From the NCBI GenBank assembly GCA_965649055.1, contig CBFGJG010000008.1, positions 1 through 22,104 of the forward strand: DNA of 22,104 bases, given 5' to 3'. Of the stretch, positions 3,739 to 19,427 are shown piece after piece. The notes beneath the pieces were generated by a model, which ran no database searches, was not told the origin of the DNA, and was given only the letters and a program-made list of their open reading frames with translations. Source of the stretch: a candidate division WOR-3 bacterium. Lineage in GTDB: Bacteria > Hydrothermota > UBA3072 > B12-G15. The position numbers were made by a program, and so were the translations under genes. Each line of letters begins with the position of its first letter. The first letter of the stretch is position 1.

Positions 3739-5005
3739 AATATTTACAAAGGAATTGAGAAATTACCTTTTACCCCATAGTGATTTTACTTTAAGAAAAA
3801 ACCATGAGATTGACCTTAAAGATGCAGAATGCATAAATAATCTTGGATTATATATCCATATACCTTTCTGTAAGAACTCCTGTCCTTACTGTCCTTACAA
3901 TAAGATTTTATATGAGGAAAAGCTCGTCGAACCTTTCAAGAATGCAATTTTAAAGGAGATTCAAATTTACGGAAGGAGACTGACAGGGAAGGAGATAACA
4001 TCAATCTATATAGGTGGTGGAACCCCAACGAATATTATAGATGAACTTGGAACAATTCTGAATGAAATCAGAAAATTTTTCAATATAAAAGGAAGTATCT
4101 GCATTGAAACAAATCCCAATGATATTAATATTGTTAACTTAAAAAAACTTAATGATTATGGGATTGAGATTATAAGCTGTGGTGTTCAAAGTTTCCAGGA
4201 TAAATTTTTAAGATACATTGGAAGGAATTATGACTCATCAATATTACCTGAAAAACTTATATTGCTTAAGAATTCAAATTTCAAATCAGTGAATATTGAC
4301 CTTATGTTTGCATTACCAAATCAGAATGTAGAAGACATCATTTACGACCTTGAGAAAATTATCGAGTTTGGAATTAACCAGGTTACCGCATATCCCCTTT
4401 TCACTTTTCCATATTCAAGCGTTGGTAGATTTCTCAAATTAAGAAAGGTTAGAATGCCAAATATATTTAAGAGAAGAATAATGTATCATACTATACATTC
4501 ATATCTTACTTCTAAAGGTTTTAGAAGGGTTTCAGTCTGGGGCTTTATAAAGCATAATGAACCAAGGTATTCATCAGTTACAAGGGACTTTTATATAGGT
4601 TTTGGTCCTGGATCAGGAACTTCACTTAAAAATGGATACTATCTCAATACATTCTCATTTAATCATTATATAAAAATCTTAAGAGAAAAAAAACTACCAA
4701 TAGCATTAAAAATGGATTTCAACGACGAAATGTTAAGATATTACTGGTTTTACTGGCGTCTATATGATACTACAATTAAAGAAGAAGAACTTGAAGAATA
4801 TTTTAAAAATGATAGAAGACTAAAAAAGATAATAAAAGTTTCTGATATTTTAAATTTTTATGATAAAAAAGATGGATACATAATACTGAATGAAAGAGGC
4901 TCTTTTTATCTACACCTTTTACAGAATTATTTTCTACTTAATTATATAAATAAAGTCTGGAGCAAGGCAATGGAAGAGCCTTTCCCTGAGATAATTAAAC
5001 TTTAA
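3731..5005 (+). CDS. HemN/coproporphyrinogen III oxidase-like radical SAM protein
   Basis: LYIHIPFCKNSCPYC (CxxxCxxC), SIYIGGGTPT, ETNP, GVQSF, NIDLMFALP, YIGFGPGS. ATG at 3731 overlaps the asd 3' end and is preferred over TTG 3728. Confidence 0.85.
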   Translation: MIEIFTKELRNYLLPHSDFTLRKNHEIDLKDAECINNLGLYIHIPFCKNSCPYCPYNKILYEEKLVEPFKNAILKEIQIYGRRLTGKEITSIYIGGGTPTNIIDELGTILNEIRKFFNIKGSICIETNPNDINIVNLKKLNDYGIEIISCGVQSFQDKFLRYIGRNYDSSILPEKLILLKNSNFKSVNIDLMFALPNQNVEDIIYDLEKIIEFGINQVTAYPLFTFPYSSVGRFLKLRKVRMPNIFKRRIMYHTIHSYLTSKGFRRVSVWGFIKHNEPRYSSVTRDFYIGFGPGSGTSLKNGYYLNTFSFNHYIKILREKKLPIALKMDFNDEMLRYYWFYWRLYDTTIKEEELEEYFKNDRRLKKIIKVSDILNFYDKKDGYIILNERGSFYLHLLQNYFLLNYINKVWSKAMEEPFPEIIKL

Positions 5006-5013
5006 ATTTTATC

Positions 5014-5041
5014 TTGAAATTTTTTTCTCGTATGATATTAT
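5014..5041 (+). promoter_or_regulatory. Sigma70-like promoter with extended -10 for the YbaK-family gene and hypF
   Basis: TTGAAA 5014-5019, 16 bp spacer, TG at 5033-5034, TATTAT 5036-5041. SD AGGAGG 5049-5054. Confidence 0.65.
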
Positions 5042-5059
5042 TTAAAAAAGGAGGAAAAT

Positions 5060-5533
5060 ATGTCGATAAGTAAAAAAGTAAAGGAATTTCTTGATGAAAA
5101 AAGAATACCTTACTCTGTAATGTTCCACAAAGAAGCCTTTACAGCACAGGAAGTTGCAGCTACCGAACATATTTCAGGTTATAAATTTGCAAAGGTGGTG
5201 ATCCTGAAAAGCGGCAAAAAATTCTTTATGGCAGTGCTACCTGCCCCATATCATGTTGACCTTAAAAAATTCCAAAAAAAACTGGGACTTAAAGAATTAT
5301 CTCTTGCTTCTGAATCTGAACTTGACAAACTCTTCCCTGACTGCGATACAGGCGCTGAACCACCTTTTGGTAATCTTTACAATATACCTGTGTACATTGA
5401 TCCTTCATTAACAAAGAATGATGAGATTGTCTTCAATGCAGGATTCCACAATGAAACTATAACGATAAAAATGTCTGATTACATGAAACACGTTAAACCT
5501 GAAAAATTCTCATTTAAAAAGAAGGTAGATTAA
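5060..5533 (+). CDS. YbaK/EbsC/ProX-family aminoacyl-tRNA deacylase-like protein
   Basis: H..AFTAQEVA, FAKVVIL (conserved Lys), LASESEL..LFPDC..GAEPPFG, VFNAGFH. Strong SD. Confidence 0.88.
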   Translation: MSISKKVKEFLDEKRIPYSVMFHKEAFTAQEVAATEHISGYKFAKVVILKSGKKFFMAVLPAPYHVDLKKFQKKLGLKELSLASESELDKLFPDCDTGAEPPFGNLYNIPVYIDPSLTKNDEIVFNAGFHNETITIKMSDYMKHVKPEKFSFKKKVD

Positions 5534-5543
5534 ATATTAATTA

Positions 5544-7772
5544 ATGCAGACTTATCAAATAATCGTTAAAGGTATTGTTCAGGGTGTAGGTTTCAGGCCT
5601 TTTGTTTATAAATTGGCAAAAAAATACAGATTAAAAGGATTCGTTAAAAATGACACGAAAGGTGTTTATATAATTTTACAGGGAGACGAACAAAATATAT
5701 TTAAATTTTTGACTGATATAAAAGAAAAACACCCGCCAAGGGCTAAAATTATTTCTATAGAAAAAAACATTATTGATTATGATACCCTTTATGATTTCAG
5801 GATTGTCGAGAGCGAAAAAAACGAAAAGATATCAACATTTATTTCCCCTGACATTGCAACGTGTGAAGAATGTTTGAAAGAGATGTTTGATGAAAAAGAC
5901 AGAAGATACCTTTATCCATTTATCAATTGCACAAATTGTGGTCCAAGATTCACAATAACAAATGCAATTCCTTACGATAGAATTAATACTACAATGTCTG
6001 AATTCAAGATGTGCAAGGAATGTGAAACCGAATACAATGATCCAGAATCAAGAAGATTCCATGCACAGCCAAATGCCTGTTACAAATGTGGTCCAGAAAT
6101 AAAATTACTTGATAAGGATTTGAACAATATAGAAGGTGATTGGCTTTTGAATACAATTAACCTCTTAAAAGATGGGAAAATCATTATGATAAAAGGTATT
6201 GGTGGATACCATTTTGCCTGCAATGCCTACATTGATGAGTCTGTAAAAGAGATAAGGAAAAGAAAAAAACGCGGTAATAAACCTTTTGCATTAATGGGAA
6301 GTCTGGAAATTATCAAAGAAAATTGTTTACTTGATGAAATTGAAGAAAGATATTTAAGATCACCTTCAGCACCTATTGTCTTGTTGAAAAAAAGAAAAGA
6401 TTCGAAAATCCCTTATTCAGTTGCCCCAGGAACGGATGAATTAGGCTTTATGCTCCCTTATACACCTTTACATCATCTTATTATTAAAAATATTGAATTT
6501 CCAATAGTTCTAACCTCTGCAAATATTTCTGATGAAACTATACTTTATGAAGATGAAAATATATATAGATTGAAAGAAATTTATGATTATGTTTTGACAC
6601 ACAACAGAAAAATATATATTTTTAACGAAGATTCCGTTATACGTGTATTTAACAATCAGATTTATCCTATCAGGATATCAAGAGGATATGTCCCTGAACC
6701 ATTTAAAATACCTGTATCATCGAAAAAAACTATCCTTGGAGTAGGAAGTGATTTAAAGAATACTTTTTGTATCTTGAAGGATAATCTTGTATTCACAAGC
6801 CAGTTTATTGGTGATATGGGTAATATAGAGACTGAAAATGCATTTTTTAAATCTTTAGAACACTATAAGAAAATTTACAATCTTAATATTGAGAATGCTG
6901 TTTGTGATCTTCATCCTGAGTATATAACTACTTCAATAACACAAAAAATGGGAATTCCATATATAAAAGTCCAGCACCACAAAGCACATTTTGTTTCTTG
7001 CCTTCTGGAAAATGATATAGTTGAGAACTCCATAGGTTTTATCTTTGACGGAACTGGTTATGGTGAAGATAACAACATATGGGGTGGAGAAGTATTCTAT
7101 GGTAACATTTACGCACAGGAAAGAATATATCATTTAAGATACACCCCTCTTCCTGGAGGAGAAGAGGCAATCGTGAATAACTGGAGATACGGTGTTTCTC
7201 TTCTTTTTGATGCCGGTCTTGAAGATGCAATTGAATATTTATATAAAGATTTCAACTACGATATAATTATAAATATGATAAAAAGAGGAATTAATTCACC
7301 ACTTACATCAAGTATGGGAAGATTGTTCGATGGTGTATCATCCATATTGAATATTTGTCAAAAAAATACATATGAAGGTGAAGCTGCTGTAATGCTTGAA
7401 AAAATTGCGAAAAAAGACGATGTGTTCTATGAATTTTATATTAAAGAAAATACAATATTTTTTGACGATGTTATTAGATGTTTATATAACGATTTAAAAA
7501 AAGGTTTAGATAAAGGTTTAATATCATTCAGATTCCATAAAGGGATTGCAAACCTTATAAAAAAAATAATAGAGAAAGAAATTAAAAGAAGGGAATTCAA
7601 AAATGTAGTTTTAAGTGGTGGGGTATTCCAGAATTCCCTTCTCCTTAAGCTTTCCTTTGAAACTATTAAGGATATGGGATTTTCCCCGGTTATCCATAAA
7701 AGATTACCGACAAATGACCAGTGTATAGGGCTTGGACAGGTAGGTTTAGGTGCAGTTCATTTTAACTTGTAA
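5544..7772 (+). CDS. hypF: [NiFe]-hydrogenase maturation carbamoyltransferase HypF
   Basis: Acylphosphatase domain GIVQGVGFRPFV, two zinc fingers (CEEC...CTNC; CKEC...CYKC), KGIGGYHFAC, TSAN, CDLHPEY, QHHKAH, DGTGYG, SSMGRLFD, LSGGVFQN. Confidence 0.97.
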   Translation: MQTYQIIVKGIVQGVGFRPFVYKLAKKYRLKGFVKNDTKGVYIILQGDEQNIFKFLTDIKEKHPPRAKIISIEKNIIDYDTLYDFRIVESEKNEKISTFISPDIATCEECLKEMFDEKDRRYLYPFINCTNCGPRFTITNAIPYDRINTTMSEFKMCKECETEYNDPESRRFHAQPNACYKCGPEIKLLDKDLNNIEGDWLLNTINLLKDGKIIMIKGIGGYHFACNAYIDESVKEIRKRKKRGNKPFALMGSLEIIKENCLLDEIEERYLRSPSAPIVLLKKRKDSKIPYSVAPGTDELGFMLPYTPLHHLIIKNIEFPIVLTSANISDETILYEDENIYRLKEIYDYVLTHNRKIYIFNEDSVIRVFNNQIYPIRISRGYVPEPFKIPVSSKKTILGVGSDLKNTFCILKDNLVFTSQFIGDMGNIETENAFFKSLEHYKKIYNLNIENAVCDLHPEYITTSITQKMGIPYIKVQHHKAHFVSCLLENDIVENSIGFIFDGTGYGEDNNIWGGEVFYGNIYAQERIYHLRYTPLPGGEEAIVNNWRYGVSLLFDAGLEDAIEYLYKDFNYDIIINMIKRGINSPLTSSMGRLFDGVSSILNICQKNTYEGEAAVMLEKIAKKDDVFYEFYIKENTIFFDDVIRCLYNDLKKGLDKGLISFRFHKGIANLIKKIIEKEIKRREFKNVVLSGGVFQNSLLLKLSFETIKDMGFSPVIHKRLPTNDQCIGLGQVGLGAVHFNL

Positions 7773-7783
7773 TTTTTTTTACA
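7768..7783. promoter_or_regulatory. Candidate operator TGTAA-N6-TTACA just upstream of the tusA promoter
   Basis: Inverted repeat 7768-7772 / 7779-7783 with CRP/FNR/Rex-like spacing, 8 bp upstream of the -35. Confidence 0.3.
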
Positions 7784-7791
7784 TAATAATA

Positions 7792-7819
7792 TTGACAAGA
7801 TTAAATTTTTTATTAAATT
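7792..7819 (+). promoter_or_regulatory. Sigma70-like promoter of the sulfur-relay operon
   Basis: TTGACA 7792-7797, 16 bp spacer, TAAATT 7814-7819. SD AAGGAGGT precedes ATG 7839. Confidence 0.7.
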
Positions 7820-7838
7820 AAATAAAAAGGAGGTATCG

Positions 7839-8069
7839 ATGGATGTTAAAAAAACAATTGATGCGAGTGGTTTAAGTTGTCCAATGCCTATAGTGAAACT
7901 GTCGCAGGGAATAAAGGAAATAAATGTTGGAGAAATTATAGAGATTATTGCAACAGACCAATCTTTTATTCCTGATGTTGAAGCATGGTGTAGGAAGACG
8001 GAGAATACGTTAGTTGAAATAAAAAATGATGGTGAAACCATAAGAGCTTACATAAAAAAGGAGAAATAA
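7839..8069 (+). CDS. tusA: Sulfurtransferase TusA/SirA family protein
   Basis: 76 aa with DASGLSCPMP (CPxP motif), IATD....DVEAWC. Confidence 0.93.
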   Translation: MDVKKTIDASGLSCPMPIVKLSQGIKEINVGEIIEIIATDQSFIPDVEAWCRKTENTLVEIKNDGETIRAYIKKEK

Positions 8070-8070
8070 G

Positions 8071-8556
8071 ATGGAAAAAAATAATGAAAGTGTTTCAATT
8101 GTTGTTTTTAGTGGTGACCTTGACAAAGTTATGGCTGCATTTATCATTGCAAATGGTGCCGCTGCATCAGGTATGGAAGTGAATATGTTTTTTACATTCT
8201 GGGGATTGAGTGCCTTGAGAAAATGCAATGTAAAAGTAAAAGGGAAAAATATTATTGAAAAAATGTTTGGTATGATGTTACCTAAAGGAGCTGAGAAACT
8301 TGCTTTATCAAAAATGAATATGGCCGGTATGGGAACAATAATGTTAAAAAATGTAATGAAAAAGAAGAAAATACCCTCATTAACTGAGCTTATCGAGATA
8401 TCTAAACAGCTTGGTGTTAATATGTATCTATGCGAGATGTCTATGAATGTTATGGGTCTTAAAAGGGAAGAATTTATTGATGGTATAAAAGATATAGTAG
8501 GAGTTGCATCTTACATTGAACATGCCTCAAAAGCTAATATAACATTATTCATTTAG
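8071..8556 (+). CDS. DsrE2-type (DsrE/DsrF/DsrH-like) sulfur-carrier protein
   Basis: SIVVFSGDLDK..AAFIIANGAAA, MFFTFWGL..LRK, LSKMNMAGMG, conserved Cys in LCEMSMNVMG, C-terminal TLFI. Confidence 0.88.
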   Translation: MEKNNESVSIVVFSGDLDKVMAAFIIANGAAASGMEVNMFFTFWGLSALRKCNVKVKGKNIIEKMFGMMLPKGAEKLALSKMNMAGMGTIMLKNVMKKKKIPSLTELIEISKQLGVNMYLCEMSMNVMGLKREEFIDGIKDIVGVASYIEHASKANITLFI

Positions 8557-8564
8557 GAGAAAAC

Positions 8565-8933
8565 ATGGAAGAAAAAAAGAAAAAACTGGGAATCCTTGTA
8601 ACTGCTGGACCTTACACATTCCAGCATTTGGATACTGCCTACTTTATTGCGAAAAATGCAATAGAGAAAAATATAGATGTTAATATATTTCTTTTTATAG
8701 ATGGTGTAATCTCTCTTTCAAGCAGGATTAAATCACCTGGAGAAAGGCATATCCCGACTATGCTCAAAGAACTGGCAGAAAAAGGGGTAAAGATAGTAGG
8801 ATGTGGTGATTGTGCACAATTCAGAAGTGTTCTGAGGGAAAATCTATATCCTGAGATAAAACTTGCTGGTATTGCAACACTTGCAGAAATGGTTGAAAAT
8901 TGTGACAGATTTATAACATTGAGGTTACCATGA
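8565..8933 (+). CDS. dsrE: DsrE/TusD-family sulfurtransferase subunit
   Basis: ILVTAGPY, IFLFIDGV, active-site region GCGDCAQFR, C-terminal LAEMVENCDRFI. Confidence 0.82.
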   Translation: MEEKKKKLGILVTAGPYTFQHLDTAYFIAKNAIEKNIDVNIFLFIDGVISLSSRIKSPGERHIPTMLKELAEKGVKIVGCGDCAQFRSVLRENLYPEIKLAGIATLAEMVENCDRFITLRLP

Positions 8934-9280
8934 AAAAAGTAGTAATTCTTTCAATTCATCCACCGTATGGGACAGCTATAAATGCAGAGGCATTCAGGGC
9001 GGGTCTTGGTCTTGCTTTTTCAGAGATCTCTGTTCATCTTGTGTTATGTCAGGATGGAGTATTTGCCGCTTTAAAGAATCAGGACCCTAAATCAATTCAG
9101 ATGAAATCTATGGAAGAAGTTTACAAAAACATATCATCAATGGGAATAAATCTCTATATTGATAGAAAATCAATGGAAGAACGAAATATAAAAGAAGATG
9201 AAATAGTTAGTGCTAAAATAATTGATGAAGAAGAATTAAAAAACCTTATAAATTCTGCAGATACAGTTCTTACTTTTTAG
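8930..9280 (+). CDS. dsrF: DsrF/TusC-family subunit
   Basis: MKKVVIL...PPYGT...AEAFRAG, QDGVFA, SMEERNI, C-terminal ADTVLTF. ATGA overlap with dsrE. Confidence 0.8.
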   Translation: MKKVVILSIHPPYGTAINAEAFRAGLGLAFSEISVHLVLCQDGVFAALKNQDPKSIQMKSMEEVYKNISSMGINLYIDRKSMEERNIKEDEIVSAKIIDEEELKNLINSADTVLTF

Positions 9281-9288
9281 GAGGAAAT

Positions 9289-9552
9289 ATGAAAACTCTG
9301 TGGATCTTCCTTCATACACCAAACACAAACAATATAAAATGTGTTCAAAGAATGACAGATAGTGAAGATGCTGTTCTTTTCTTACAAAACGGTGTTTATG
9401 CAGCGAAATTGAATATTGATATAAAAAGTCCTGTATATTACCTGCGTGAAGATGTAAAAGCAAGAGGAATAAATGTGGATGAAAAATACCTTGTAGATTA
9501 TTCACAAATGATAGAACTCATTTTTAAATATGATAGGGTTGTAACTTTTTAA
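9289..9552 (+). CDS. dsrH: DsrH/TusB-family subunit
   Basis: DAVLFLQNGVYAA, LREDVKARG, VDYSQMIELI. 87 aa, SD AGGAGG. Confidence 0.88.
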   Translation: MKTLWIFLHTPNTNNIKCVQRMTDSEDAVLFLQNGVYAAKLNIDIKSPVYYLREDVKARGINVDEKYLVDYSQMIELIFKYDRVVTF

Positions 9553-9560
9553 ATTAAAAT

Positions 9561-10700
9561 ATGAGTGGAGACATAGAAATTTATAAGATAGATAATAAGG
9601 AAAAAAGGGATATTTTTCATTTTATTCAATTACCTCATTTTCTTTATAAAAATTCATCCTGTTGGGTCGCTCCATTCAACGTTGATGTTTATCTTCAATT
9701 GAATAAACTTAAGCACCCTTTTTATGAACATTCTGATGCTGATTTTTTTATTGCTATTAAAAATAATAAAGTAGTGGGAAGAATAGCCGCTATTGAAAAC
9801 AAAAGATACAATAAATACCACAATACTAATATCGCAAATTTTTATTTTTTTGATTGTGAAAATGAACAAACAGTTGCGGATAAATTGTTTGATGCTGTTT
9901 TTAACTGGGCAAAGAAAAGAGGTTTGAATACCATTGTTGGTCCTAAAGGTCTGGGTGCATTTGATGGTTACGGTATACTTATAAAGGGATTTGAACACAT
10001 GCAAACTATGAATATGCTGAATTACAACTTTGATTATTACTCCAAGTTACTTGAAAAACTTGGGTTTGAAAAAGAGGTTGATTTTGTATCTTATTATCTA
10101 CCTAAAGATAAATATAGAATACCCGAGAGGATTGAAAAAATTGCTAAAACCATTTACGATAGGGGCGAACTAAAAATATATAATTTCAAAAGTAAAAAAG
10201 AAATGTTAGGATTTGCTGAAAAGATTGGTAAACTTTATAATGCCTGCTTTATAAATAACTGGGAATATTATCCATTAACAGATAATGAGATAAGGTTCAT
10301 AGCTAAAAATATAATTTCATTTGCCGATTACAGACTTATTAAACTTATTATTTTCAAAGATGAAATCGTAGGTTTTATTTTTGCATTTCCAGATATTTCT
10401 GAAGGTATGCGCAAGGCAAAAGGTAAAATTAACCCGCTAACCATTTTTAATATCCTCATGGAAATGAGAAAAACAGATAAACTCACAGTAAATGGTATTG
10501 GTATACTCCCGGAATTCCAGGGACATGGTGGGAATGCCCTACTCTATTATGAATTGGGAAAAACTATTTTAAGATTTAAAAGATTCAAGCATATTGAGAT
10601 GCCACAGGTTGCAGAAACTGCCAAACAAATGACATTAGATATAAAAAATTTAAATGGTGAAGAATACAAAAGACATAGAATTTACAGAAAAAATATTTAA
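9561..10700 (+). CDS. YghO-like tandem GNAT-fold protein, function unknown
   Basis: WVAP......LN..KHPFYEH, VVGRIAA, FFDC, IVGP, YN..YY..LLEKLGFEK, GILPEFQGHG (acyl-CoA-binding motif A-like). Confidence 0.65.
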   Translation: MSGDIEIYKIDNKEKRDIFHFIQLPHFLYKNSSCWVAPFNVDVYLQLNKLKHPFYEHSDADFFIAIKNNKVVGRIAAIENKRYNKYHNTNIANFYFFDCENEQTVADKLFDAVFNWAKKRGLNTIVGPKGLGAFDGYGILIKGFEHMQTMNMLNYNFDYYSKLLEKLGFEKEVDFVSYYLPKDKYRIPERIEKIAKTIYDRGELKIYNFKSKKEMLGFAEKIGKLYNACFINNWEYYPLTDNEIRFIAKNIISFADYRLIKLIIFKDEIVGFIFAFPDISEGMRKAKGKINPLTIFNILMEMRKTDKLTVNGIGILPEFQGHGGNALLYYELGKTILRFKRFKHIEMPQVAETAKQMTLDIKNLNGEEYKRHRIYRKNI

Positions 10701-10707
10701 TAAATCC

Positions 10708-10735
10708 TTGACAAAAAATAAAAATATATTAGACT
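10708..10735 (+). promoter_or_regulatory. Sigma70-like promoter of the gcvPB/GlmL-like operon (probably leaderless)
   Basis: TTGACA 10708-10713, 16 bp spacer, TAGACT 10730-10735, 6 nt (GAAGAT), ATG 10742. No SD. Confidence 0.72.
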
Positions 10736-10741
10736 GAAGAT

Positions 10742-12172
10742 ATGAAAATTTTAAAAGAAAAATCAAGGCAAGGTAATACTGGATACAGTTTACCTGAATT
10801 AGATGTAAATAAAAAAGAAATCAAGGATTTTATTCCAGAGGATTACATAAGAAAAGAAAAACCAGATCTACCCGAGCTCTCAGAGCCAGATGTTGTAAGG
10901 CATTTTGTAAATCTATCAATACTTAATCATCATGTTGATAAAGGATTTTACCCCCTCGGTTCATGCACAATGAAATACAATCCGAAAATAAATGAAGAAC
11001 TATCAAGATTATCATATTTTATTAATATCCATCCTCTTCAGGATAATGAAACTATTCAAGGTGTATTACAATTGATATACGAATTAGAAGAAATGCTTGG
11101 TAAAGTAACAGGTTTTAATTTTGTATCTCTTCAACCAGCTGCCGGTGCACATGGAGAACTTACAGGTCTTCTTATTATGAATGCTTACCACAAAAAGAAA
11201 GGAAAGATAAGAAAAAAAGTTTTAATACCGGATTCAGCCCATGGAACAAATCCAGCATCTGCAACAAGAGCTGGTCTTGAATCAATAAAAATACCATCAA
11301 ATGAAGAAGGTATATTAACACCAGATATTCTGAAAAGATACCTTGATGATGATGTTGCAGGTCTTATGATAACAAATCCCAATACCCTTGGTATTTTCGA
11401 AGAATACATAAAAGAGATTTCTGATATATTACACGAATACGATGCAATCCTGTATATGGATGGAGCAAATCTTAATGCACTTATGGGTTACTTCAGGCCT
11501 GGTGATTCCGGTGTTGATATTTTACATCTTAATCTTCATAAAACATTCTCTGCACCGCATGGTGGAGGTGGACCAGGTGCAGGTGGAGTATGTGTTCAGG
11601 AAAAACTTGAGAGATTTTTACCAATTCCAAGGATTGTTAAAAAAGATAAATTTTATCTTGATTTTAACTATCCTGACTCAATAGGTAAGGTGATTTCATT
11701 CTATGGGAATTTCAATGTCTTTATAAAAGCATATACTTATTTGAAGATAATGGGTAAAAAAGGATTAAAATTAGCTACAGAGCAAGCTGTTATAAACGCA
11801 AATTATCTTTTAAGAATACTTGAAAAATATTATGAACTACCATATAAGAGAAGATGTATGCACGAATTTGTCCTATCAGGTTCTAATCTTAAAAAATACG
11901 GGGTAAAAACACTTGATGTAGCAAAGAGACTCCTTGATTTCGGATTACACGCACCAACCGTTTATTTCCCTTTAATTGTTCAGGAAGCTTTAATGATTGA
12001 GCCTACTGAAACTGAATCAAAAGAAACCCTTGATGATTTCGCATCAAAGATGATTCAGATTACGAAGGAAGCCGAAACTAACCCTCAAATACTTAAAGAA
12101 GCACCTGTTAATACACCTGTAAGAAGATTAAATGAAGCACAGGCTGCAAGAGATCTAAATGTTCGGTGGTAA
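10742..12172 (+). CDS. gcvPB: Glycine dehydrogenase (decarboxylating), P-protein subunit 2
   Basis: YPLGSCTMKYNP, QPAAGAHGE, SAHGTNPASA, YMDGANLNA, PLP-lysine motif HLNLHKTF, PHGGGGPG, MIEPTETESKE. Length of 476 aa fits the split beta subunit. Confidence 0.97.
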   Translation: MKILKEKSRQGNTGYSLPELDVNKKEIKDFIPEDYIRKEKPDLPELSEPDVVRHFVNLSILNHHVDKGFYPLGSCTMKYNPKINEELSRLSYFINIHPLQDNETIQGVLQLIYELEEMLGKVTGFNFVSLQPAAGAHGELTGLLIMNAYHKKKGKIRKKVLIPDSAHGTNPASATRAGLESIKIPSNEEGILTPDILKRYLDDDVAGLMITNPNTLGIFEEYIKEISDILHEYDAILYMDGANLNALMGYFRPGDSGVDILHLNLHKTFSAPHGGGGPGAGGVCVQEKLERFLPIPRIVKKDKFYLDFNYPDSIGKVISFYGNFNVFIKAYTYLKIMGKKGLKLATEQAVINANYLLRILEKYYELPYKRRCMHEFVLSGSNLKKYGVKTLDVAKRLLDFGLHAPTVYFPLIVQEALMIEPTETESKETLDDFASKMIQITKEAETNPQILKEAPVNTPVRRLNEAQAARDLNVRW

Positions 12173-12500
12173 AGAGGATTTTTTCAATATATATTCAACT
12201 GATGACATCACTGAAGAAGAAAAAAATAAATTTATTGAAAAACTTGCGGAAGATATTGTGATCAGAAGGCTCGGGATACCGGCAATTATGTTTCTTGAAA
12301 GCATAAAACCTTTAAGTTTTGTGGGGTCTCAGATAATGATAATGCTTAATCCTTTTATTCAGGCAATATTCACTTCAAAGAACTACTGGATGGCTTCTTT
12401 AATTTTTGAAAAAAGGGAAAATGTAGAGTGCCTCATAAAACAAATAGAAAGGAGGCTTGATGAACAAAAAAGAGGAACTCAAGAGAATACTCGCAACTGA
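12159..12500 (+). CDS. Small hypothetical protein with central hydrophobic segment
   Basis: 113-aa ORF filling the gap between gcvPB and the GlmL-like gene and overlapping both; segment PAIMFLESIKPLSFVGSQ. Confidence 0.75.
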   Translation: MFGGKEDFFNIYSTDDITEEEKNKFIEKLAEDIVIRRLGIPAIMFLESIKPLSFVGSQIMIMLNPFIQAIFTSKNYWMASLIFEKRENVECLIKQIERRLDEQKRGTQENTRN

Positions 12501-14247
12501 TTGTGGTAGCACCACAACAAAGGCAATTTTGATAGAAAAAGTAAAGGATGAATATAGGCTAATAGTTAGGGGTGAAGCACCAACAACAGTTGAAGCACCT
12601 TTTGAAGATGTTACAAAAGGTGTTTTGAATGCTATAAGAGAGGTAGAAGAATTAACAGGAACACAGATACTTGATGGTGAGAAGATAATAAAACCTGCTG
12701 ATGGTAAGAAAGGTGTGGATATATATGTATCAACATCAAGTGCAGGCGGTGGACTCCAAATGATGGTTGCAGGTGTTGTGAAACAGATGACAGCTGAATC
12801 AGCTGCAAGGGCAGCACTCGGTGCAGGTGCTATTGTTATGGAAGTAATAGCTACAAATGATAATAGACTTGACCATGAGAGAATCGAACTTATAAGAAGG
12901 TTAAGACCTGATATGATACTCCTCTCGGGTGGAATTGATGGTGGAACTGTTACACATGTTGTTCACCTTGCTGAGATTATAGCAACTGCAGAACCAAGAC
13001 CGAGATTTGGTATAGGATATAATCTGCCTGTTATATATGCGGGCAATAAGAATGCAAGGGAAGAAATAAAAAAGATACTTGAATCCAAATCAGCACTTTC
13101 AATCGTTGATAATTTAAGACCGGTTCTTGAAAGGGAAAATTTAAGGCCTGCAAGGGATAAAATACACGATTTGTTTATGGAACATGTTATGGCTCATGCA
13201 CCTGGTTATAGGAAACTAATGGATTGGACAGATGTCCCGATTATGCCCACACCTGGTGCAGTTGGACTTCTAATCGAAACAGTTGCAAGGAAAGAGAATA
13301 TCGAGGTTTTAGGTGTTGATATAGGTGGAGCAACAACAGATGTATTCTCAGTATTCCAGGGTGTGTTCAACAGAACAGTTAGTGCAAACCTTGGAATGAG
13401 TTATTCAATCTCAAATGTTCTTAAAGAAACAGGTATTGAAAACATAATGAGGTGGGTTCCTCTTGATATAGATGAAAAAGAGGTTAGAAACAGGATCAGA
13501 AACAAAATGATAAGACCAACCACCATTCCCCATACACTTGAAGAGTTAAAAATTGAACAGGCTATTGCAAGAGAGGCATTAAGACTTGCCCTTATACAGC
13601 ACAGGGAAATGGCTGTTGGTCTAAAAGGTGTCCAGCAGGAAAGGACCATTTCAGATGCATTTGCACAAACTGCAACAGGTCAATCTTTGGTAAATATGAT
13701 GACATTGAATCTTGTTGTTGGTTCAGGTGGTGTTCTTTCACATGCACCAAGAAGGGTTCAATCTGCCCTTATGATGATTGATGCATTTGAACTTGAAGGT
13801 GTCACTAAACTCGCAGTAGATTCGATATTTATGATGCCACATCTTGGAGTCCTTTCCACGGTTCATGAAAGGTCCGCAACAGAGGTTTTTGATAAAGACT
13901 GTTTAATAAGACTCGGAACATGTATTGCACCTTCCGGGAATATAAGAAAAGAAGGTGAGAAGATATTGGTAATAAATTTTGATGGAAATACCATTGAACT
14001 CCGTGCTGGTGAAATGAAGTTAATTCCACTTGAACTTGGCAAAAAAATAAAAGTAGATTTATTACCTTCAAAAGGATTTGATGTTGGTGCAGGTAATGGT
14101 AAAGCTTTCTCTACTGAGATAGAAGGCGGTGTAGTCGGTCTGATACTTGATGGAAGGGGAAGACCTTTAAAGCTTCCAGACGACAGAAGCAAGAGAATAA
14201 ATAAACTGAATGAATGGTTCACTGAGTTAAAAATATACCCAAAATAA
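12460..14247 (+). CDS. glmL: Glutamate mutase L (GlmL/MutL)-like ASKHA-superfamily ATPase (family-level call)
   Basis: Phosphate-1 motif ILATDCGSTTTKA, SSAGGGL, LLSGGIDGG, YAGN, MPTP, phosphate-2 motif VDIGGATTDVFS, RTVSANLGMSYS, GSGGVLSH. SD AAAGGAGG 12448-12455 favours ATG 12460. Confidence 0.82.
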   Translation: MNKKEELKRILATDCGSTTTKAILIEKVKDEYRLIVRGEAPTTVEAPFEDVTKGVLNAIREVEELTGTQILDGEKIIKPADGKKGVDIYVSTSSAGGGLQMMVAGVVKQMTAESAARAALGAGAIVMEVIATNDNRLDHERIELIRRLRPDMILLSGGIDGGTVTHVVHLAEIIATAEPRPRFGIGYNLPVIYAGNKNAREEIKKILESKSALSIVDNLRPVLERENLRPARDKIHDLFMEHVMAHAPGYRKLMDWTDVPIMPTPGAVGLLIETVARKENIEVLGVDIGGATTDVFSVFQGVFNRTVSANLGMSYSISNVLKETGIENIMRWVPLDIDEKEVRNRIRNKMIRPTTIPHTLEELKIEQAIAREALRLALIQHREMAVGLKGVQQERTISDAFAQTATGQSLVNMMTLNLVVGSGGVLSHAPRRVQSALMMIDAFELEGVTKLAVDSIFMMPHLGVLSTVHERSATEVFDKDCLIRLGTCIAPSGNIRKEGEKILVINFDGNTIELRAGEMKLIPLELGKKIKVDLLPSKGFDVGAGNGKAFSTEIEGGVVGLILDGRGRPLKLPDDRSKRINKLNEWFTELKIYPK

Positions 14248-14259
14248 ACAGGAGGGAAA

Positions 14260-15381
14260 ATGGCTCATGCTTATACACCAGGCTTAAAGATTGCCAAGAA
14301 AACAATTGTGAGAAAAGAAAGAAAACTTCCATTAAAAGGAAATGTGATAGTTAAAGAAAATGATCTTGTTAAAGCAGATGACATAGTAGCAAAAACTGAG
14401 CTCCCAGGAGATGTTGAAACAATAAATCTTGCAGGAAAACTCGGGGTTATGCCTGATGAATTAAAAAACTTCTTGATAAAGAAAGTCGGGGACCCGGTAG
14501 AGAAAGATGAAGTAATAGCTGAAACAAAGGGATTTTTTGGAAAATTTAAGACCCAATTTAAATCACCTGTAAAAGGATACATTGAAACAATATCTGAAAT
14601 AACTGGTCAGTTAATCATAAGAGAACCTCCTATTCCTGTCCAGATAGATGCATATATTGATGGAAAAGTTGCAGAAATAATACCGAACGAAGGAGTTGTT
14701 GTTGAGACTGTTGCTACATTTGTTCAGGGTATATTTGGTATAGGTGGCGAAACAAAAGGTGTTATAAAAAGAATAGTTGATAAACCTTCTGATGAGGTTA
14801 CACCAGATATAATTGACGCATCTTTAAAAGACAAGATATGCATAGGTGGATCAATTATTACGAAAGATGCAATTGTTAAGGCAGTTGAAATGGGTGTAAA
14901 GGCAATTGTTGTAGGTGGAATAAATGACTACGACCTTAAAAGTTTTCTCGGTTACGATATAGGTGTTGCTATTACAGGTTTTGAAAATAAAGGTATCACG
15001 CTTGTTATAACAGAAGGTTTTGGTAAGATGGAAATGTCAAGAAAGGCATTTGATATACTCTGCTCATGTGAAGGTAAAAGGGCATCTTGTAATGGAGCAA
15101 CACAAATCAGAGCAGGTGTTATGAGACCTGAAGTTATCATTCCAATTGAATCTAAAGAAGCTGGAGAAGTAAGTATCAAAGAGACAAAAGGACTTGAGGT
15201 TGGTGATTATGTAAGGATTATTCGTGCACCATTTTTTGGCTTAATAGGAAAGGTTGCTGAACTTCCACCTGAACTTACAGATATTGAGACAGAAGCAAAA
15301 GTAAGGGTTCTTGTTGTCCAGCTTGATGATGGTAGGAAGATAACACTCCCAAGGGCTAATGTTGAAATAATAGAAGAATAG
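14260..15381 (+). CDS. Hypothetical protein with nested biotinyl/lipoyl-like (barrel-sandwich hybrid) domains, an alpha/beta middle domain and a C-terminal KOW motif
   Basis: Half-motifs VKENDLVKADDIVA and KKVGDPVEKDEVIA pair with FKSPVKGYI and IDAYIDGKV. C-terminal LEVGDYVRIIRAPFFGLIGKV is KOW-like. SD GGAGG. Confidence 0.75.
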   Translation: MAHAYTPGLKIAKKTIVRKERKLPLKGNVIVKENDLVKADDIVAKTELPGDVETINLAGKLGVMPDELKNFLIKKVGDPVEKDEVIAETKGFFGKFKTQFKSPVKGYIETISEITGQLIIREPPIPVQIDAYIDGKVAEIIPNEGVVVETVATFVQGIFGIGGETKGVIKRIVDKPSDEVTPDIIDASLKDKICIGGSIITKDAIVKAVEMGVKAIVVGGINDYDLKSFLGYDIGVAITGFENKGITLVITEGFGKMEMSRKAFDILCSCEGKRASCNGATQIRAGVMRPEVIIPIESKEAGEVSIKETKGLEVGDYVRIIRAPFFGLIGKVAELPPELTDIETEAKVRVLVVQLDDGRKITLPRANVEIIEE

Positions 15382-15389
15382 GAGGAATA

Positions 15390-15725
15390 ATGGAGTTCCT
15401 TTTACTTGCAGGAATAATACTTGCACTTGATACACTGAAAAACATAAATGCTATGAAGGATTCCTTCTCCACCCTAACGGCGTTAAAAGTCCCTATTGGT
15501 TTCGTTGTCCTATTAAAAGGTATATCTCTTTTATTTTATACGAAATTCCTTTTTCAGGGAATTATGGGGATAATTGCAGGGGCAATTTTAACGGTCGAAG
15601 TTTTTATTATTTTAATTAAAGACGATGATACTAGGGAAAGGGTTAGGCAGTCAATGTTAGGACTTTCAATTCCAGTTGGCTTTTTAACCCTTATTGCAGG
15701 TTTTATCGGATTATTCTTAAGATAA
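15390..15725 (+). CDS. Small integral membrane protein (3-4 hydrophobic segments)
   Basis: SD AGGAGG. Hydrophobic stretches such as VPIGFVVLLKGISLLF, FLFQGIMGIIAGAILTVEVFIILI and IPVGFLTLIAGFIGLFL. Confidence 0.75.
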   Translation: MEFLLLAGIILALDTLKNINAMKDSFSTLTALKVPIGFVVLLKGISLLFYTKFLFQGIMGIIAGAILTVEVFIILIKDDDTRERVRQSMLGLSIPVGFLTLIAGFIGLFLR

Positions 15726-17706
15726 AACCTGATACAGAAATCACAAGAAAGATTATAGATACCTTCTGAATCCCATATATTGGTAATAAAAATAATGAAA
15801 CAAAGAAAGAACCAAAAGAAGCACCTGCGAGGTCCAGAAAATATATCTTTGCTGCTTCTTTCCTTTTTTCCCTTCCAGAAATGAATGTAGAACAGGAGTA
15901 AGCAAGGCCAACTGAAAAACCTGTTAGGAAATTTATTATAAAAGAAATGATAATATTAAAACCTTTTAATGGAATTAGGATTATAAATACATAGATAAAT
16001 GAAAGAATTAAAAAAACAACATTTAAATAATAATCCTTTGTTTTTTTCTCAAAAAAGAACCCACCTGTTGCAATTCCGAGCATAAAAGAACCAATAATTG
16101 CACTTACATACTGGTATAAAGAACCATTTATAGACTGAAACAGGAATAGTATTATTATCTCTGTAGAGATTCCAAGAAAACCAATTAAAAATACATTATA
16201 AAGAATATTTTTTCTTATAAGTGGAATTGAAAAGAAAGCTATAAAAATATAGAACGGAATTTTTTCAACAAATTTCAAAATCTTGAAAAAACCTTCATTA
16301 TATTTTAATGCAAAATATTTAACAAAAAGATAGAAAAGAATTGGGTTCTTGATTGTTGATATTTTAAAATCACCTGAAATAATATCAGAGAAGATTTTTG
16401 CCCTCTCGATAAGAAATTCCAGATATGATAAATTTAAATATTTGAATTCATAATCATCCAATCTTTTTTTTATCTCTTCTTTACTGATAAAAAAAGGAGT
16501 ATCACTGAATAAAAAAATTCCTGTTTCCATAGGGAAAAAAAGATAATGTTCAAACAATCTTAATCCAGTTTTTAAAACAGTTCCGTTTATCTCTTTTAAA
16601 CAATCATCAAGATAAATATCGGAAGATGGAATCTTCAAAACAATTATACCATCCTTTTTTAGGTATTCTTTTATCGATTGAAGAAACTCAAGTGTATAAA
16701 ACCTGTTATTAGAAATGTTATATGGTAATCCCGAATTTATGAATATGAAATCGTATTTCTTTTTATCAGAAAGGGTTAAAGGGTCTTTAAATATCCAGTT
16801 TATATTTTGGGGATAATAATCTATTAAATTTTTGTCATAAACCACGATATTTAATCTGCCAAATTTTATTAACCTTTCAGATTCGGAAGGTGTAGGAAAT
16901 CCAATTGATAAAATTTCATTTTCTTTATTGCTTCTTAAAGTAAAAGGTATAAGTTGCAATTCATCATAATATTCCTGTGGAAATGAAAATGATAGATTTC
17001 CATCTATAAATACAGATTTAACTCCGTCTCTTTCCCTAATAATATATCTATTGTACCTTGAATCAATCAATCTTAAAAACCTGTATCCAGCATATTCTCT
17101 TTCAATGCTCTTTACAACAATAAATTGAGTAAGAATAGCAGAAATTATAACAATCTGTAAAAAGTATATCTTTTTTTTCCCTCTGAATAGATATAAAAGG
17201 ATAATTAAACCATAAATTAAATAAAATCTGTAATTGAAATTAAAAAATCTAAGAAGAACATAGGAAAAGACAAAACCACCTGTAAGATTTCCCAAGGCTT
17301 CATAAATATAAGGCCTTATATAACCTTTCAAATCATCTTCTTTCCTCCATTCCCTTAATCCTCTTCCAAATAATGAACCAATTATCAGGAACAAAGGAGA
17401 AAAAATAACATAATATATTATCAAAACCTCACTTATTCTCAGAATTTCTCCAGGTGATTTGTTAAACAGAAAATGAATATTGTATGATATTAAGATGTAA
17501 AAAGGCAAAATTATAGTAAATATGGTTAAATATATAACAAAATTTCCTTTTCTTGAAGAGATAAAAACACCTAATCCATTAAATAAAAGCCATGAAGATA
17601 AGAAAATACAGGTTGAGATTTCATTGTTTGCTATAGATAAATATGTTTCTCTGATAAGTATTGATTGTGTTAAAAGACTTAAGAAACCAATGAAAAAAAG
17701 GAACAT
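15703..17706 (-). CDS. Membrane-bound spermidine-synthase-like protein (TM domain, methyltransferase-fold domain, TM domain), apparently degenerate
   Basis: N-terminal IGFLSLLTQSILIRE...NEIS, YIYEALGNLTGG, DSRYN, NRFYTLEF, LKKDGI, C-terminal EIIILFLFQSINGSLY and YFLDLAGASFG. Confidence 0.75.
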   Translation of the reverse strand: MFLFFIGFLSLLTQSILIRETYLSIANNEISTCIFLSSWLLFNGLGVFISSRKGNFVIYLTIFTIILPFYILISYNIHFLFNKSPGEILRISEVLIIYYVIFSPLFLIIGSLFGRGLREWRKEDDLKGYIRPYIYEALGNLTGGFVFSYVLLRFFNFNYRFYLIYGLIILLYLFRGKKKIYFLQIVIISAILTQFIVVKSIEREYAGYRFLRLIDSRYNRYIIRERDGVKSVFIDGNLSFSFPQEYYDELQLIPFTLRSNKENEILSIGFPTPSESERLIKFGRLNIVVYDKNLIDYYPQNINWIFKDPLTLSDKKKYDFIFINSGLPYNISNNRFYTLEFLQSIKEYLKKDGIIVLKIPSSDIYLDDCLKEINGTVLKTGLRLFEHYLFFPMETGIFLFSDTPFFISKEEIKKRLDDYEFKYLNLSYLEFLIERAKIFSDIISGDFKISTIKNPILFYLFVKYFALKYNEGFFKILKFVEKIPFYIFIAFFSIPLIRKNILYNVFLIGFLGISTEIIILFLFQSINGSLYQYVSAIIGSFMLGIATGGFFFEKKTKDYYLNVVFLILSFIYVFIILIPLKGFNIIISFIINFLTGFSVGLAYSCSTFISGREKRKEAAKIYFLDLAGASFGSFFVSLFLLPIYGIQKVSIIFLVISVSGFILRIIR

Positions 17707-19427
17707 TAAAGTTTAATTGATTCTAATATTCTATTTATCTCATCTTCAACAATAGGTGAATTGTTCAACGAAACCTTCATCATAATAATATCTATTTCAT
17801 CTTTTACGACCCTTGAAAAATTAACCTCAAAATTTTTAAATTTTTCAAGTATCTTATCATACATTTTTAATTTACTTTCATAGGAAAAAACAATGTATGT
17901 TCCAGTGTTCAATGTTTTATAGATTATGGAATTCCTCCCATTTTTTGCAGAAATAAATGCCTCGTAACCGAGAATAAGCAATGTTTCTATTCCTTCGTCT
18001 GTCTCTGAAACCCTGTAGAAATCTTCTATTGAATAATAAAATTCTTTAAGAACCTCATTTGGTATGTTTTTTATCTTACCGAGAATCCTTTCAAGCTTCT
18101 GAATATCCATTTTCCTCAATCCTTCATCGAAATCTCTCAGGTTAGGAAGATATTTTCTAAAAATCTCTTTAAGGCTATCGTATACTTCGCTAATATAATA
18201 GAAGCTTGGAGTTTCTACCCTTAAATCAATTATATGTATGGAAACATCTCCCAATATCTTTCTTGGATGAATACCCTGTAAAAAGAAAAAATTTGATTTA
18301 ACTATATCATCAATAATACCTGAGATTTCGAAACCTTTGTCAAGAACAAAGATAATTTTGAAATCTACATAGAATTCTGTGGATTCAAGAGAACTTATGT
18401 ATATCTGAGGTATTTTTGTCTTCTGGTATTCATTAACAAGGAATGGAATTATAGCTCTAATATAGTGTTCAAAACCACCTATGAAATCAATCCTTTCAAT
18501 CCTTTCAGTCCTTTTCTTTTTCCATAAAGATTTCAGCGTTGATAATATTTTGCCAAATTTTATCTCATCTAAGGGTTTATCATCATTATCAGTGATTTCA
18601 AGTCTAACCACATAAACACCATCTTTAGTGGTAAATTCTTTATTATATTTAACCTTAAAAAGGCCAATTGAATAAGAAAGTGATTCCAATATATCTTTCA
18701 GGTTCAAATCCCTTTCAAAAGAGGCAATTGTTATTCCAGTTAAATCTTCAAAAGTGGTCTTTATATTTTTTATCCATATCTGAAGTTCTCCTCTTGAATC
18801 CCTAACATTTTTTATGAGTTTTGCATTTTGAATAATTTGTTCTGCAAGGTCCTCCACACTTCTCTGTTCAATGTATGCCCTTGACCTTGACGCAAAAAAT
18901 TTAAAAACCTCTCCTTCAGGGCTTAGTAATTCATTCAAGAATTCTCTTTCTGCCTTTTTTTCAATAATATCTACAACCTTTGAGTATATTTCAAGCCTTT
19001 TAGTCTCCTGGGAAAGCAACATCTTCTTTGCAACACTACCAATAGATATATATCTTATGTTATCAATAATCTCCTGTCTTTCTCTTAGGAATTTATTTAA
19101 TTCTTCATTATCTTCAATCTTTATAACGATAAGGAGCAGACCAAGTTTCTTATCTTCATATTCAATGATAAATCCTTTCTCGTAATAAATATTCCAACCT
19201 TTCTCATGGAAAGCACCTGTTATTGCATCTGAAAGACCGGGCCAATCAGAAGCAATTATCCCAACATCGACTGGTATAGGAAATTTTTTTTTCGATGGAA
19301 TCTTGGATGAATATGTCTGTATTCCACCTTCTTTAATCCATAGCTCAAGGAGATTTCTTATAACGGTATTTTCCCTTTTTTCAGGATAAAATTTTTTTAT
19401 AGAAAGTAGTATCTTATCAAAATCCAT
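17706..19427 (-). CDS. Hypothetical protein with repeated ACT-like domains
   Basis: 573-aa ORF. VGIIASDWPGLSDAITGAFHEKGWNI resembles the ACT signature of GlnD-type domains; second unit ...FTTKDGVYVVRLEITDNDDKPL. TAATG coupling to the next gene. Confidence 0.6.
   Translation of the reverse strand: MDFDKILLSIKKFYPEKRENTVIRNLLELWIKEGGIQTYSSKIPSKKKFPIPVDVGIIASDWPGLSDAITGAFHEKGWNIYYEKGFIIEYEDKKLGLLLIVIKIEDNEELNKFLRERQEIIDNIRYISIGSVAKKMLLSQETKRLEIYSKVVDIIEKKAEREFLNELLSPEGEVFKFFASRSRAYIEQRSVEDLAEQIIQNAKLIKNVRDSRGELQIWIKNIKTTFEDLTGITIASFERDLNLKDILESLSYSIGLFKVKYNKEFTTKDGVYVVRLEITDNDDKPLDEIKFGKILSTLKSLWKKKRTERIERIDFIGGFEHYIRAIIPFLVNEYQKTKIPQIYISSLESTEFYVDFKIIFVLDKGFEISGIIDDIVKSNFFFLQGIHPRKILGDVSIHIIDLRVETPSFYYISEVYDSLKEIFRKYLPNLRDFDEGLRKMDIQKLERILGKIKNIPNEVLKEFYYSIEDFYRVSETDEGIETLLILGYEAFISAKNGRNSIIYKTLNTGTYIVFSYESKLKMYDKILEKFKNFEVNFSRVVKDEIDIIMMKVSLNNSPIVEDEINRILESIKL

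Follow-up and report, generated by a model that had tools for sequence, protein, structure and literature searches.

An actin-fold ATPase of the GlmL/MutL family and its conserved partners in a candidate division WOR-3 bacterium: a candidate ATP-driven membrane system

Introduction

Among the described systems that stand near to the one considered here are the diol and glycerol dehydratase reactivases and EutA, which combine an actin-fold ATPase with a domain of the swivelling type, and in which the nucleotide is supposed to drive the opening of an alpha/beta domain of the partner. The nucleotide motifs of such ATPases (ASKHA) are named phosphate-1, phosphate-2 and adenosine. We describe an actin-fold ATPase of the GlmL/MutL family encoded in a stretch of 22,104 nucleotides from a candidate division WOR-3 bacterium of the phylum Hydrothermota (assembly GCA_965649055.1, contig CBFGJG010000008.1, forward strand), which is called the window below. 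The ATPase is encoded in a row with a glycine dehydrogenase subunit gene, gcvPB, and with three proteins named here by their lengths in residues, p113, p373 and p111 (Table 1). A preliminary description of the window had taken the ATPase, p373 and the two small proteins for a membrane-associated ATP-dependent complex, and this interpretation is supported by our analysis in part.

We propose that the window carries the cytoplasmic half of a conserved multi-subunit system, whose membrane half lies on another contig (C1) of the same genome, and that the two work together as an ATP-driven membrane complex, a reading whose chances we consider to be about balanced. What we observe directly is the composition of the system, the co-occurrence and the joint loss of its genes, the fusion of the ATPase with p373 and the absence of a B12 mutase.

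Results and discussion

The ATPase and the search for a B12 mutase

The ATPase matches PF13941 (MutL) with 432.1 bits at a gathering cut-off of 27, over the whole profile (positions 1-450 of 450) and over its own residues 11-482. It stays under all GlmL-type cut-offs, with 240.8 bits versus 475 for the GlmL equivalog NF040745, 224.4 versus 600 for the GlmL-related ornithine degradation protein Or-4 (NF040744) and 177.8 versus 204.05 for the subfamily model TIGR01319 (glmL_fam). Close relatives are labelled as 'TIGR01319 family' in one source, and relatives are named 'glutamate mutase L' in the sources. Weak matches to Hydantoinase_A and Hydant_A_N were also found, far under the MutL score, and a sequence search of the PDB gave no relative of the ATPase at E up to 1.

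The motifs DCGSTTTK (D15-K22), DIGGATTD (D288-D295) and SGG.LSHAP (S423-P431) are invariant in all 8 aligned relatives; the phosphate-1 and phosphate-2 motifs, which had been described as intact, are indeed so, and the adenosine motif is likewise present. Because the model match stops at residue 482 of 596, a tail of 114 residues lies outside PF13941, in agreement with the C-terminal extension noticed earlier after ...VFDKDCL. According to our alignment this tail is conserved in 8/8 relatives from several phyla, with the motif GG..G...D.RGRP and with G557, G558, G561, D565, R567, G568, R569 and P570 as its invariant residues.

The genome of the bacterium (2.08 Mb, 93.8% complete) has one PF13941 gene. 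ATPase identity is 62-65% between phyla and 68-84% among the matches listed within the phylum, and PF13941 was found at its cut-off in none of 14 model control genomes. In some genomes of a second phylum, considered below, a divergent ATPase type with 44-47% identity to that of the window stands beside the main type (G232:C4, G219:C95, G264:C106, G283:C19). Two loci (L132, L151) have two tandem ATPase-p373 pairs with p113 between them, and the ATPases of these loci are placed on the tree as sisters with long branches.

No B12-binding subunit is encoded in the window, as the preliminary description stated, and its picture of a GlmL-family ATPase without a mutase was upheld by searches of the genome for B12 genes of the glmS/glmE and oraS/oraE types, which found none. 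The single match to PF02310 (B12-binding) in this genome is a B12-binding radical-SAM protein, and a search with PF06368 (GlmE) gave no match. PF09043 (lysine aminomutase) gave no match either, a model that was silent in all control genomes too. The ATPase is not a helper of a B12 mutase.

The partners p373 and p113

A Pfam scan of p373 gave only sub-threshold matches, to KOW, Biotin_lipoyl (18.1 bits, cut-off 22.1) and RnfC_N. The AlphaFold2 (AF2) model, with a pLDDT (predicted local distance difference test) of 93.3, is divided into three domains. The first (approximately residues 1-150) is predicted as a barrel-sandwich hybrid similar to the N-terminal part of NqrA/RnfC, the second (152-300) as a swivelling beta/beta/alpha domain, and the third (309-373) as a KOW-like barrel with VIA Z of 8-9 to KOW domains. 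Other VIA matches of p373 are enzyme I of the phosphotransferase system (PTS; Z 9.3), RraA (8.6) and rifampin phosphotransferase (8.3); reactivases do not appear among the 50 VIA rows for p373, which leaves room for a relation to them. Among 80 aligned homologues no His or Lys is invariant or near-invariant, and therefore p373 is neither a phosphohistidine nor a lipoyl carrier; the residues that are invariant are T281, R284, G286, R289 and P290. Clustering of the p373 family gives at least 8000 clusters at 90% identity, while at 50% there are 2584 representatives.

The two proteins accompany each other in genomes. The phylum sample comprised 201 genomes, and the ATPase and p373 were each found in 180 of them; comparing the two match lists, with one genome per list placed from family tallies, we count both proteins in 175 genomes, neither in 16 and a single one in 5 plus 5. 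Gene order was studied in 40 loci of the phylum, chosen by hand for family spread and contig room and hence not random, and in the best 80 of 519 metagenome loci. In these samples the ATPase is closely followed by p373 in 10 of 39 phylum loci and in 35 of 55 metagenome loci with room for it. Two representatives, P0150 (995 amino acids, aa) and P0220 (1003 aa), join the two proteins end to end in one chain. The tie between the ATPase and the 373-residue protein proposed earlier is borne out by this co-occurrence, adjacency and fusion.

The small protein p113 has no Pfam or NCBIfam family above cut-off, and is conserved in a core (A30, A42, E47, P51, Q58, P65, Y76, E84, L92, E97) which it combines with a K/R/E-rich tail. 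It had been called hydrophobic, and an apolar stretch is present, but conserved E and K residues lie inside that stretch. Its gene is found just 5' of the ATPase in 27/40 phylum and 52/73 metagenome loci, and in some loci it follows p373 instead. According to our analysis p113 is a conserved third subunit of the system.

The membrane half and the joint loss of the system

The membrane partners are encoded outside the window. On the minus strand of C1 (locus L018), at 5687-12074, there are two tandem sets of four membrane genes with 43-46% identity between the sets, then a gene of the LplA/LipB family (4986-5687) and then one for a SPOUT methyltransferase, all of 4576-12074 being on one strand. 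Two of the C1 proteins contain DUF6754 (PF20539), with 379.9 and 348.8 bits at a cut-off of 27. The other genes of a set encode a polytopic protein of ~207 aa, a protein of ~278 aa with an alpha/beta part between transmembrane (TM) segments (TM-alpha/beta-TM) and a polytopic protein of ~200 aa. In the model of the DUF6754 protein (pLDDT 89.9) an FN3 ectodomain comes first, and behind it two TM helices enclose a cytoplasmic alpha/beta domain of five strands.

In other genomes these genes form one operon with the cytoplasmic ones. DUF6754 is encoded directly 3' of p373 in L005, L006 and L010 (records titled Scalinduaceae, Latescibacterota and Deltaproteobacteria, respectively) and directly after p373 in 14 of 28 metagenome loci with room, and the three genes after it are homologous between loci and to the genes of C1. 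Two genomes of the phylum (L036, L056) have the co-directional string gcvPB-p113-ATPase-p373-[DUF6754-M-P-M]x2-LplA, and the same complete string was found in a metagenome locus (L095). From these single-string loci, the window and C1 look like two halves of one ancestral operon. The membrane association that was suggested earlier thus stands, but with DUF6754 and the three other proteins of C1 as membrane partners, which lie outside the window.

The membrane and the cytoplasmic genes are also lost together. In one genus (g4) of the window's order the ATPase, p373 and DUF6754 were found in 0/15 genomes each, while all three are present in the other 8 genera of this order. In the second phylum (that of genome G003) DUF6754 was found in 34 of 121 genomes and the ATPase in 34 as well, with both in 32, one alone in 4 and neither in 85. 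In one genome of the second phylum (G308, contig C20, ~254.5-262.5 kb) the matches to the ATPase and DUF6754 contain in-frame stops (TGA, TAA), which may reflect joint decay or sequencing error.

The module-less genus is also informative on p111, which has no match in Pfam or NCBIfam and whose loci, as far as found, all belong to the window's order. In all three examined genomes of this genus (L152-L154) p111 stands directly 3' of gcvPB, an arrangement that looks like a clean loss of p113, the ATPase and p373. Because p111 stays by gcvPB where the ATPase, p373 and DUF6754 are missing, we regard it as a neighbour and not a subunit; its earlier inclusion in the complex has to be given up, as it is restricted to the window's order and persists without the module.

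Several relations of the membrane proteins were considered. The LNS2 domain of Nir2 was returned by Foldseek as a fold relative of DUF6754 (E 3.6e-7), with a root-mean-square deviation (rmsd) of 25.6, which is too poor. In the ESM Atlas a membrane protein of ~283 aa matched its own family only and the DUF6754 core matched nothing. For a kinship with Rnf/Nqr-like membrane subunits (PF02508), profile comparison of the ~207-aa and ~200-aa proteins with RnfE and RnfA of this genome showed no similarity (hhalign probabilities of 0.15% and 0.39% against these single sequences), and no relation between the two polytopic proteins themselves was detected. A complex prediction for p373 with DUF6754 residues 100-363 scored 0.00, which weighs neither for nor against binding.

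The link to glycine cleavage and protein lipoylation

The gcvPB of the window matches the NF003346 equivalog with 720.4 bits at a cut-off of 441. It had been called a lone gene, and this was not confirmed: gcvT, gcvH and gcvPA (605.6 bits) lie together on contig C24, and lipoamide dehydrogenase (lpd) is encoded on C4 (421 bits, cut-off 408.8). Within 1 kb upstream of the ATPase gcvPB was found in 25/40 phylum loci and in 19/45 metagenome loci with room, often preceded there by gcvT, gcvH and gcvPA. On a FastTree tree of the ATPase with 124 rows the gcv-linked loci fall in three places, namely a clade with all the phylum samples, a separate clade of 9 rows, and L078. In the 9-row clade gcv genes are upstream in 6 of the rows, and in L143 there is only a gcvT-like open reading frame (ORF) downstream of p373. 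The nearest named relatives of L131, which belongs to this clade, are labelled Candidatus Eisenbacteria (82-91% identity), and therefore the linkage spans two phyla. Most loci outside the gcv-linked clades have no gcv genes.

Since gcvPB is kept above cut-off in 13/15 genomes of the module-less genus, glycine cleavage does not need the module. The link is recurrent but dispensable, and gcvPB is probably a co-transcribed neighbour and not a demonstrated subunit. The tie to glycine or ornithine catabolism supposed earlier is thus seen as synteny with glycine genes in two phyla, while nothing was found that points to ornithine.

Genes of the LplA family adjoin the system in several arrangements (C1 of this genome, L036, L056, L095, L133, L101, L144, L030), lipoyl synthase (LipA) is encoded upstream in L108, and DAO-family genes are upstream in L147 and L148. 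We also thought of a transporter that scavenges lipoate, but did not keep this idea, as this genome has LipA; a search of it for LipB found none. Envelope genes are recurrent neighbours too: immediately before the ATPase stands CdsA in 5 loci, all of one clade, and RseP in L038 and L047. PlsX is encoded downstream of the ATPase in four loci, with an ORF of 64-66 aa before it and one of 324-341 aa after; we did not keep it as a functional link and read it as a part of a neighbouring rpmF-plsX-fabH cluster, which we take to be the usual arrangement of these genes.

A possible mechanism and other explanations

From the composition of the system we may suggest how it could work. The cytoplasmic half would comprise p113, the actin-fold ATPase with its own C-terminal domain, and p373, and the membrane half would comprise DUF6754 and the ~207-aa, ~278-aa and ~200-aa proteins. 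By analogy with the action ascribed to the reactivases and to Hsp70-type relatives, the ATPase may serve as a nucleotide-driven clamp, and p373 would relay its ATP cycle to those alpha/beta domains of the membrane subunits that are cytoplasmic, where it could drive a conformational step of the membrane complex, such as transport, assembly or gating. We may even suggest, as a tentative thought with the chances rather against it, that the system represents a primary membrane machine of a new class, which uses an actin-fold ATPase instead of an ATP-binding cassette (ABC), P-type, rotary or AAA+ motor, and which occurs in many mostly uncultivated phyla, is near-universal in the window's phylum and, in some lineages, has a physiological coupling to glycine cleavage and to the lipoylation of proteins.

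Several points weigh against a membrane complex driven by this ATPase. Genomes within a phylum are kin, and the co-occurrence counts for this reason overstate independence. Genomes with a single one of the genes exist, 10 in the first phylum and 4 in the second, all of which could be incomplete assemblies. Many genomes of the phylum have the genes for the ATPase, p373 and the membrane half scattered over two or three places, and no operon evidence comes from them. In fold searches with the DUF6754 model the lists were filled by FN3 matches, which masked its alpha/beta core. We know of no primary membrane machine that is driven by an actin-fold ATPase.

Other explanations have to be considered together with this one. 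The ATPase and p373 may constitute a metabolic enzyme that phosphorylates or carboxylates a small substrate, in the manner of hydantoinase, oxoprolinase and acetone-carboxylase-type enzymes, with the membrane proteins supplying or removing the substrate and with a glycine, one-carbon or lipoyl connection. It would agree with the weak hydantoinase-type matches in the ATPase, with the similarity of the swivelling domain to mobile domains of phosphoenolpyruvate (PEP)-utilising enzymes and rifampin phosphotransferase, with gcv genes upstream in two phyla, and with the adjoining LplA-family genes and the LipA and DAO-family genes upstream. However, the hydantoinase matches are far weaker than that to MutL, p373 has no invariant His or Lys to which a phosphoryl or lipoyl group could be attached, gcv genes are not seen in most loci outside two clades, the module-less genus has largely retained gcvPB, and the LipA of this genome means that lipoate import is not required. 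We therefore find an enzyme of this kind unlikely.

The actin-fold protein could also bind the tail of p113, which would then be a small protein associated with the membrane, and organise an envelope-spanning complex as a membrane-anchored scaffold, in the way of PilM-PilN or FtsA, with ATP binding needed for assembly and not for work. The small size and conservation of p113, which is nearly always beside the ATPase, the FN3 ectodomain of DUF6754 and the envelope genes of the uppS/cdsA/rseP type that immediately precede the ATPase in two clades would fit such a role. The comparison with PilM and FtsA is by analogy, while the ATPase falls in PF13941 and not in the PilM or FtsA families, and its invariant phosphate motifs of catalytic type suggest that hydrolysis matters, so that a scaffold seems to us quite improbable. 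There is little to recommend a true GlmL-type reactivase or chaperone of an unrecognised soluble cofactor enzyme, for instance a pyridoxal phosphate (PLP)-dependent P-protein or a radical enzyme, next to which the membrane genes would be unrelated neighbours. Membership in PF13941 and the translational overlap with gcvPB are in its favour; no B12 mutase was found in the genome, the GlmL-type cut-offs are missed, gcvPB persists where the module is lost, and the ATPase co-occurs and is co-lost with DUF6754 in two phyla.

Organisation of the window

The region was described earlier as five tightly packed genes behind one promoter, with no terminator seen; the five ORFs are co-directional, and the coordinates in Table 1 confirm the packing. 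The overlaps are of 14 nt between gcvPB and p113 and of 44 nt between p113 and the ATPase, followed by gaps of 12 nt before p373 and 8 nt before p111. The ATPase ORF starts with TTG at 12457; from the ATG at 12460 the protein has 595 aa and the overlap is of 41 nt. A promoter-like site is present ahead of gcvPB, but such sites are no commoner in the region than in its shuffled versions (23 found versus 31.9 expected), and we therefore regard it as a consensus match only. The sole terminator-like site on the plus strand (12813-12831) sits within the ATPase ORF. An Rfam scan of the window gave no family at threshold, and hence no glycine riboswitch.

Table 1. Features of the ATPase region, in window coordinates
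Feature	Position	Strand	Basis
Promoter-like site TTGACA-16-TAGACT	10708-10735	+	consensus match, ahead of gcvPB
gcvPB, glycine dehydrogenase subunit 2 (476 aa)	10742-12172	+	NF003346 equivalog match
p113 (113 aa), small helical protein with K/R/E-rich tail	12159-12500	+	no Pfam/NCBIfam family above cut-off
GlmL/MutL-family actin-fold (ASKHA) ATPase (596 aa)	12457-14247	+	PF13941 match
C-terminal extension of the ATPase, residues 483-596	13903-14244	+	beyond the PF13941 model; conserved in alignment
p373 (373 aa), three-domain partner of the ATPase	14260-15381	+	AF2 model, VIA fold matches
p111 (111 aa), small membrane protein, lineage-specific	15390-15725	+	no family match

Other genes of the window are as follows. 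A peptidase C25 (gingipain-type) domain protein on the minus strand (3-1517) runs off the window start. A HypF-like carbamoyltransferase (5544-7772) precedes a string of TusA, DsrE2, DsrE, DsrE-family and DsrH-like genes (7839-9552), which is a cluster of the sulfur-relay type. Immediately 5' of gcvPB a protein of 379 aa with a GNAT domain is encoded (9561-10700), homologues of which lie downstream, at a distance of a few kb from the system in L006, the Latescibacterota record, and from p373 in L155. On the minus strand (15703-19427), converging on p111, there are genes for a polytopic protein of 667 aa with a weak spermidine-synthase-like part and for a protein of 573 aa without a family, and this gene pair is syntenic with the module across the family and the order of the window.

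Significance

The system is widespread, and we have found no published description of it. A full-text literature search found no paper on 'DUF6754' or 'PF13941', nothing relevant for 'TIGR01319', 'glutamate mutase L' or 'methylaspartate mutase accessory', and, among the titles listed, nothing on the system under 'GlmL' or 'ASKHA'. This lack of any study fits the distribution of both families, as DUF6754, like PF13941, was seen in none of the 14 model control genomes. The name 'glutamate mutase L' misleads metabolic reconstructions, from which a B12-dependent glutamate fermentation would be inferred. Should the system prove to be a membrane complex that an actin-fold motor drives with ATP, it would represent a new type of energised membrane machinery. 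The natural loss of the module in one genus provides a comparative handle on its role.

Comparison with known systems

Four known systems share features with the one described here. With the PEP-utilising enzymes, such as PTS enzyme I and rifampin phosphotransferase, p373 has in common the fold of its residues 152-300 (2wqd_A, Z 9.3, rmsd 3.2, 109 aligned; 5hv1_A, Z 8.3), but their conserved catalytic His is missing in it. The N-terminal domain of NqrA/RnfC resembles p373 as a barrel-sandwich hybrid at residues ~50-123 (Z 7.5 to 4u9o_A and 7.4 to 8ahx_C), and in both cases a peripheral cytoplasmic protein is encoded beside several small membrane subunits; the difference is that a single domain matches, no redox-cofactor motif was seen, and a normal Rnf is encoded elsewhere in the genome.

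GlmL/MutL (NF040745) and Or-4 (NF040744) share with the ATPase of the window the membership in PF13941 and the intact actin-fold nucleotide motifs. The ATPase of the window is longer, with 596 aa versus profiles of 448-459 positions and with the conserved tail of 114 aa, it misses both equivalog cut-offs, and it is accompanied instead by p113, p373 and membrane proteins. The diol and glycerol dehydratase reactivases and EutA unite an actin-fold ATPase and a swivelling-type domain as well; here, in contrast, the swivelling domain belongs to another protein, which is fused to the ATPase in some cases, there is no B12 enzyme, and the targets are likely to be membrane proteins.

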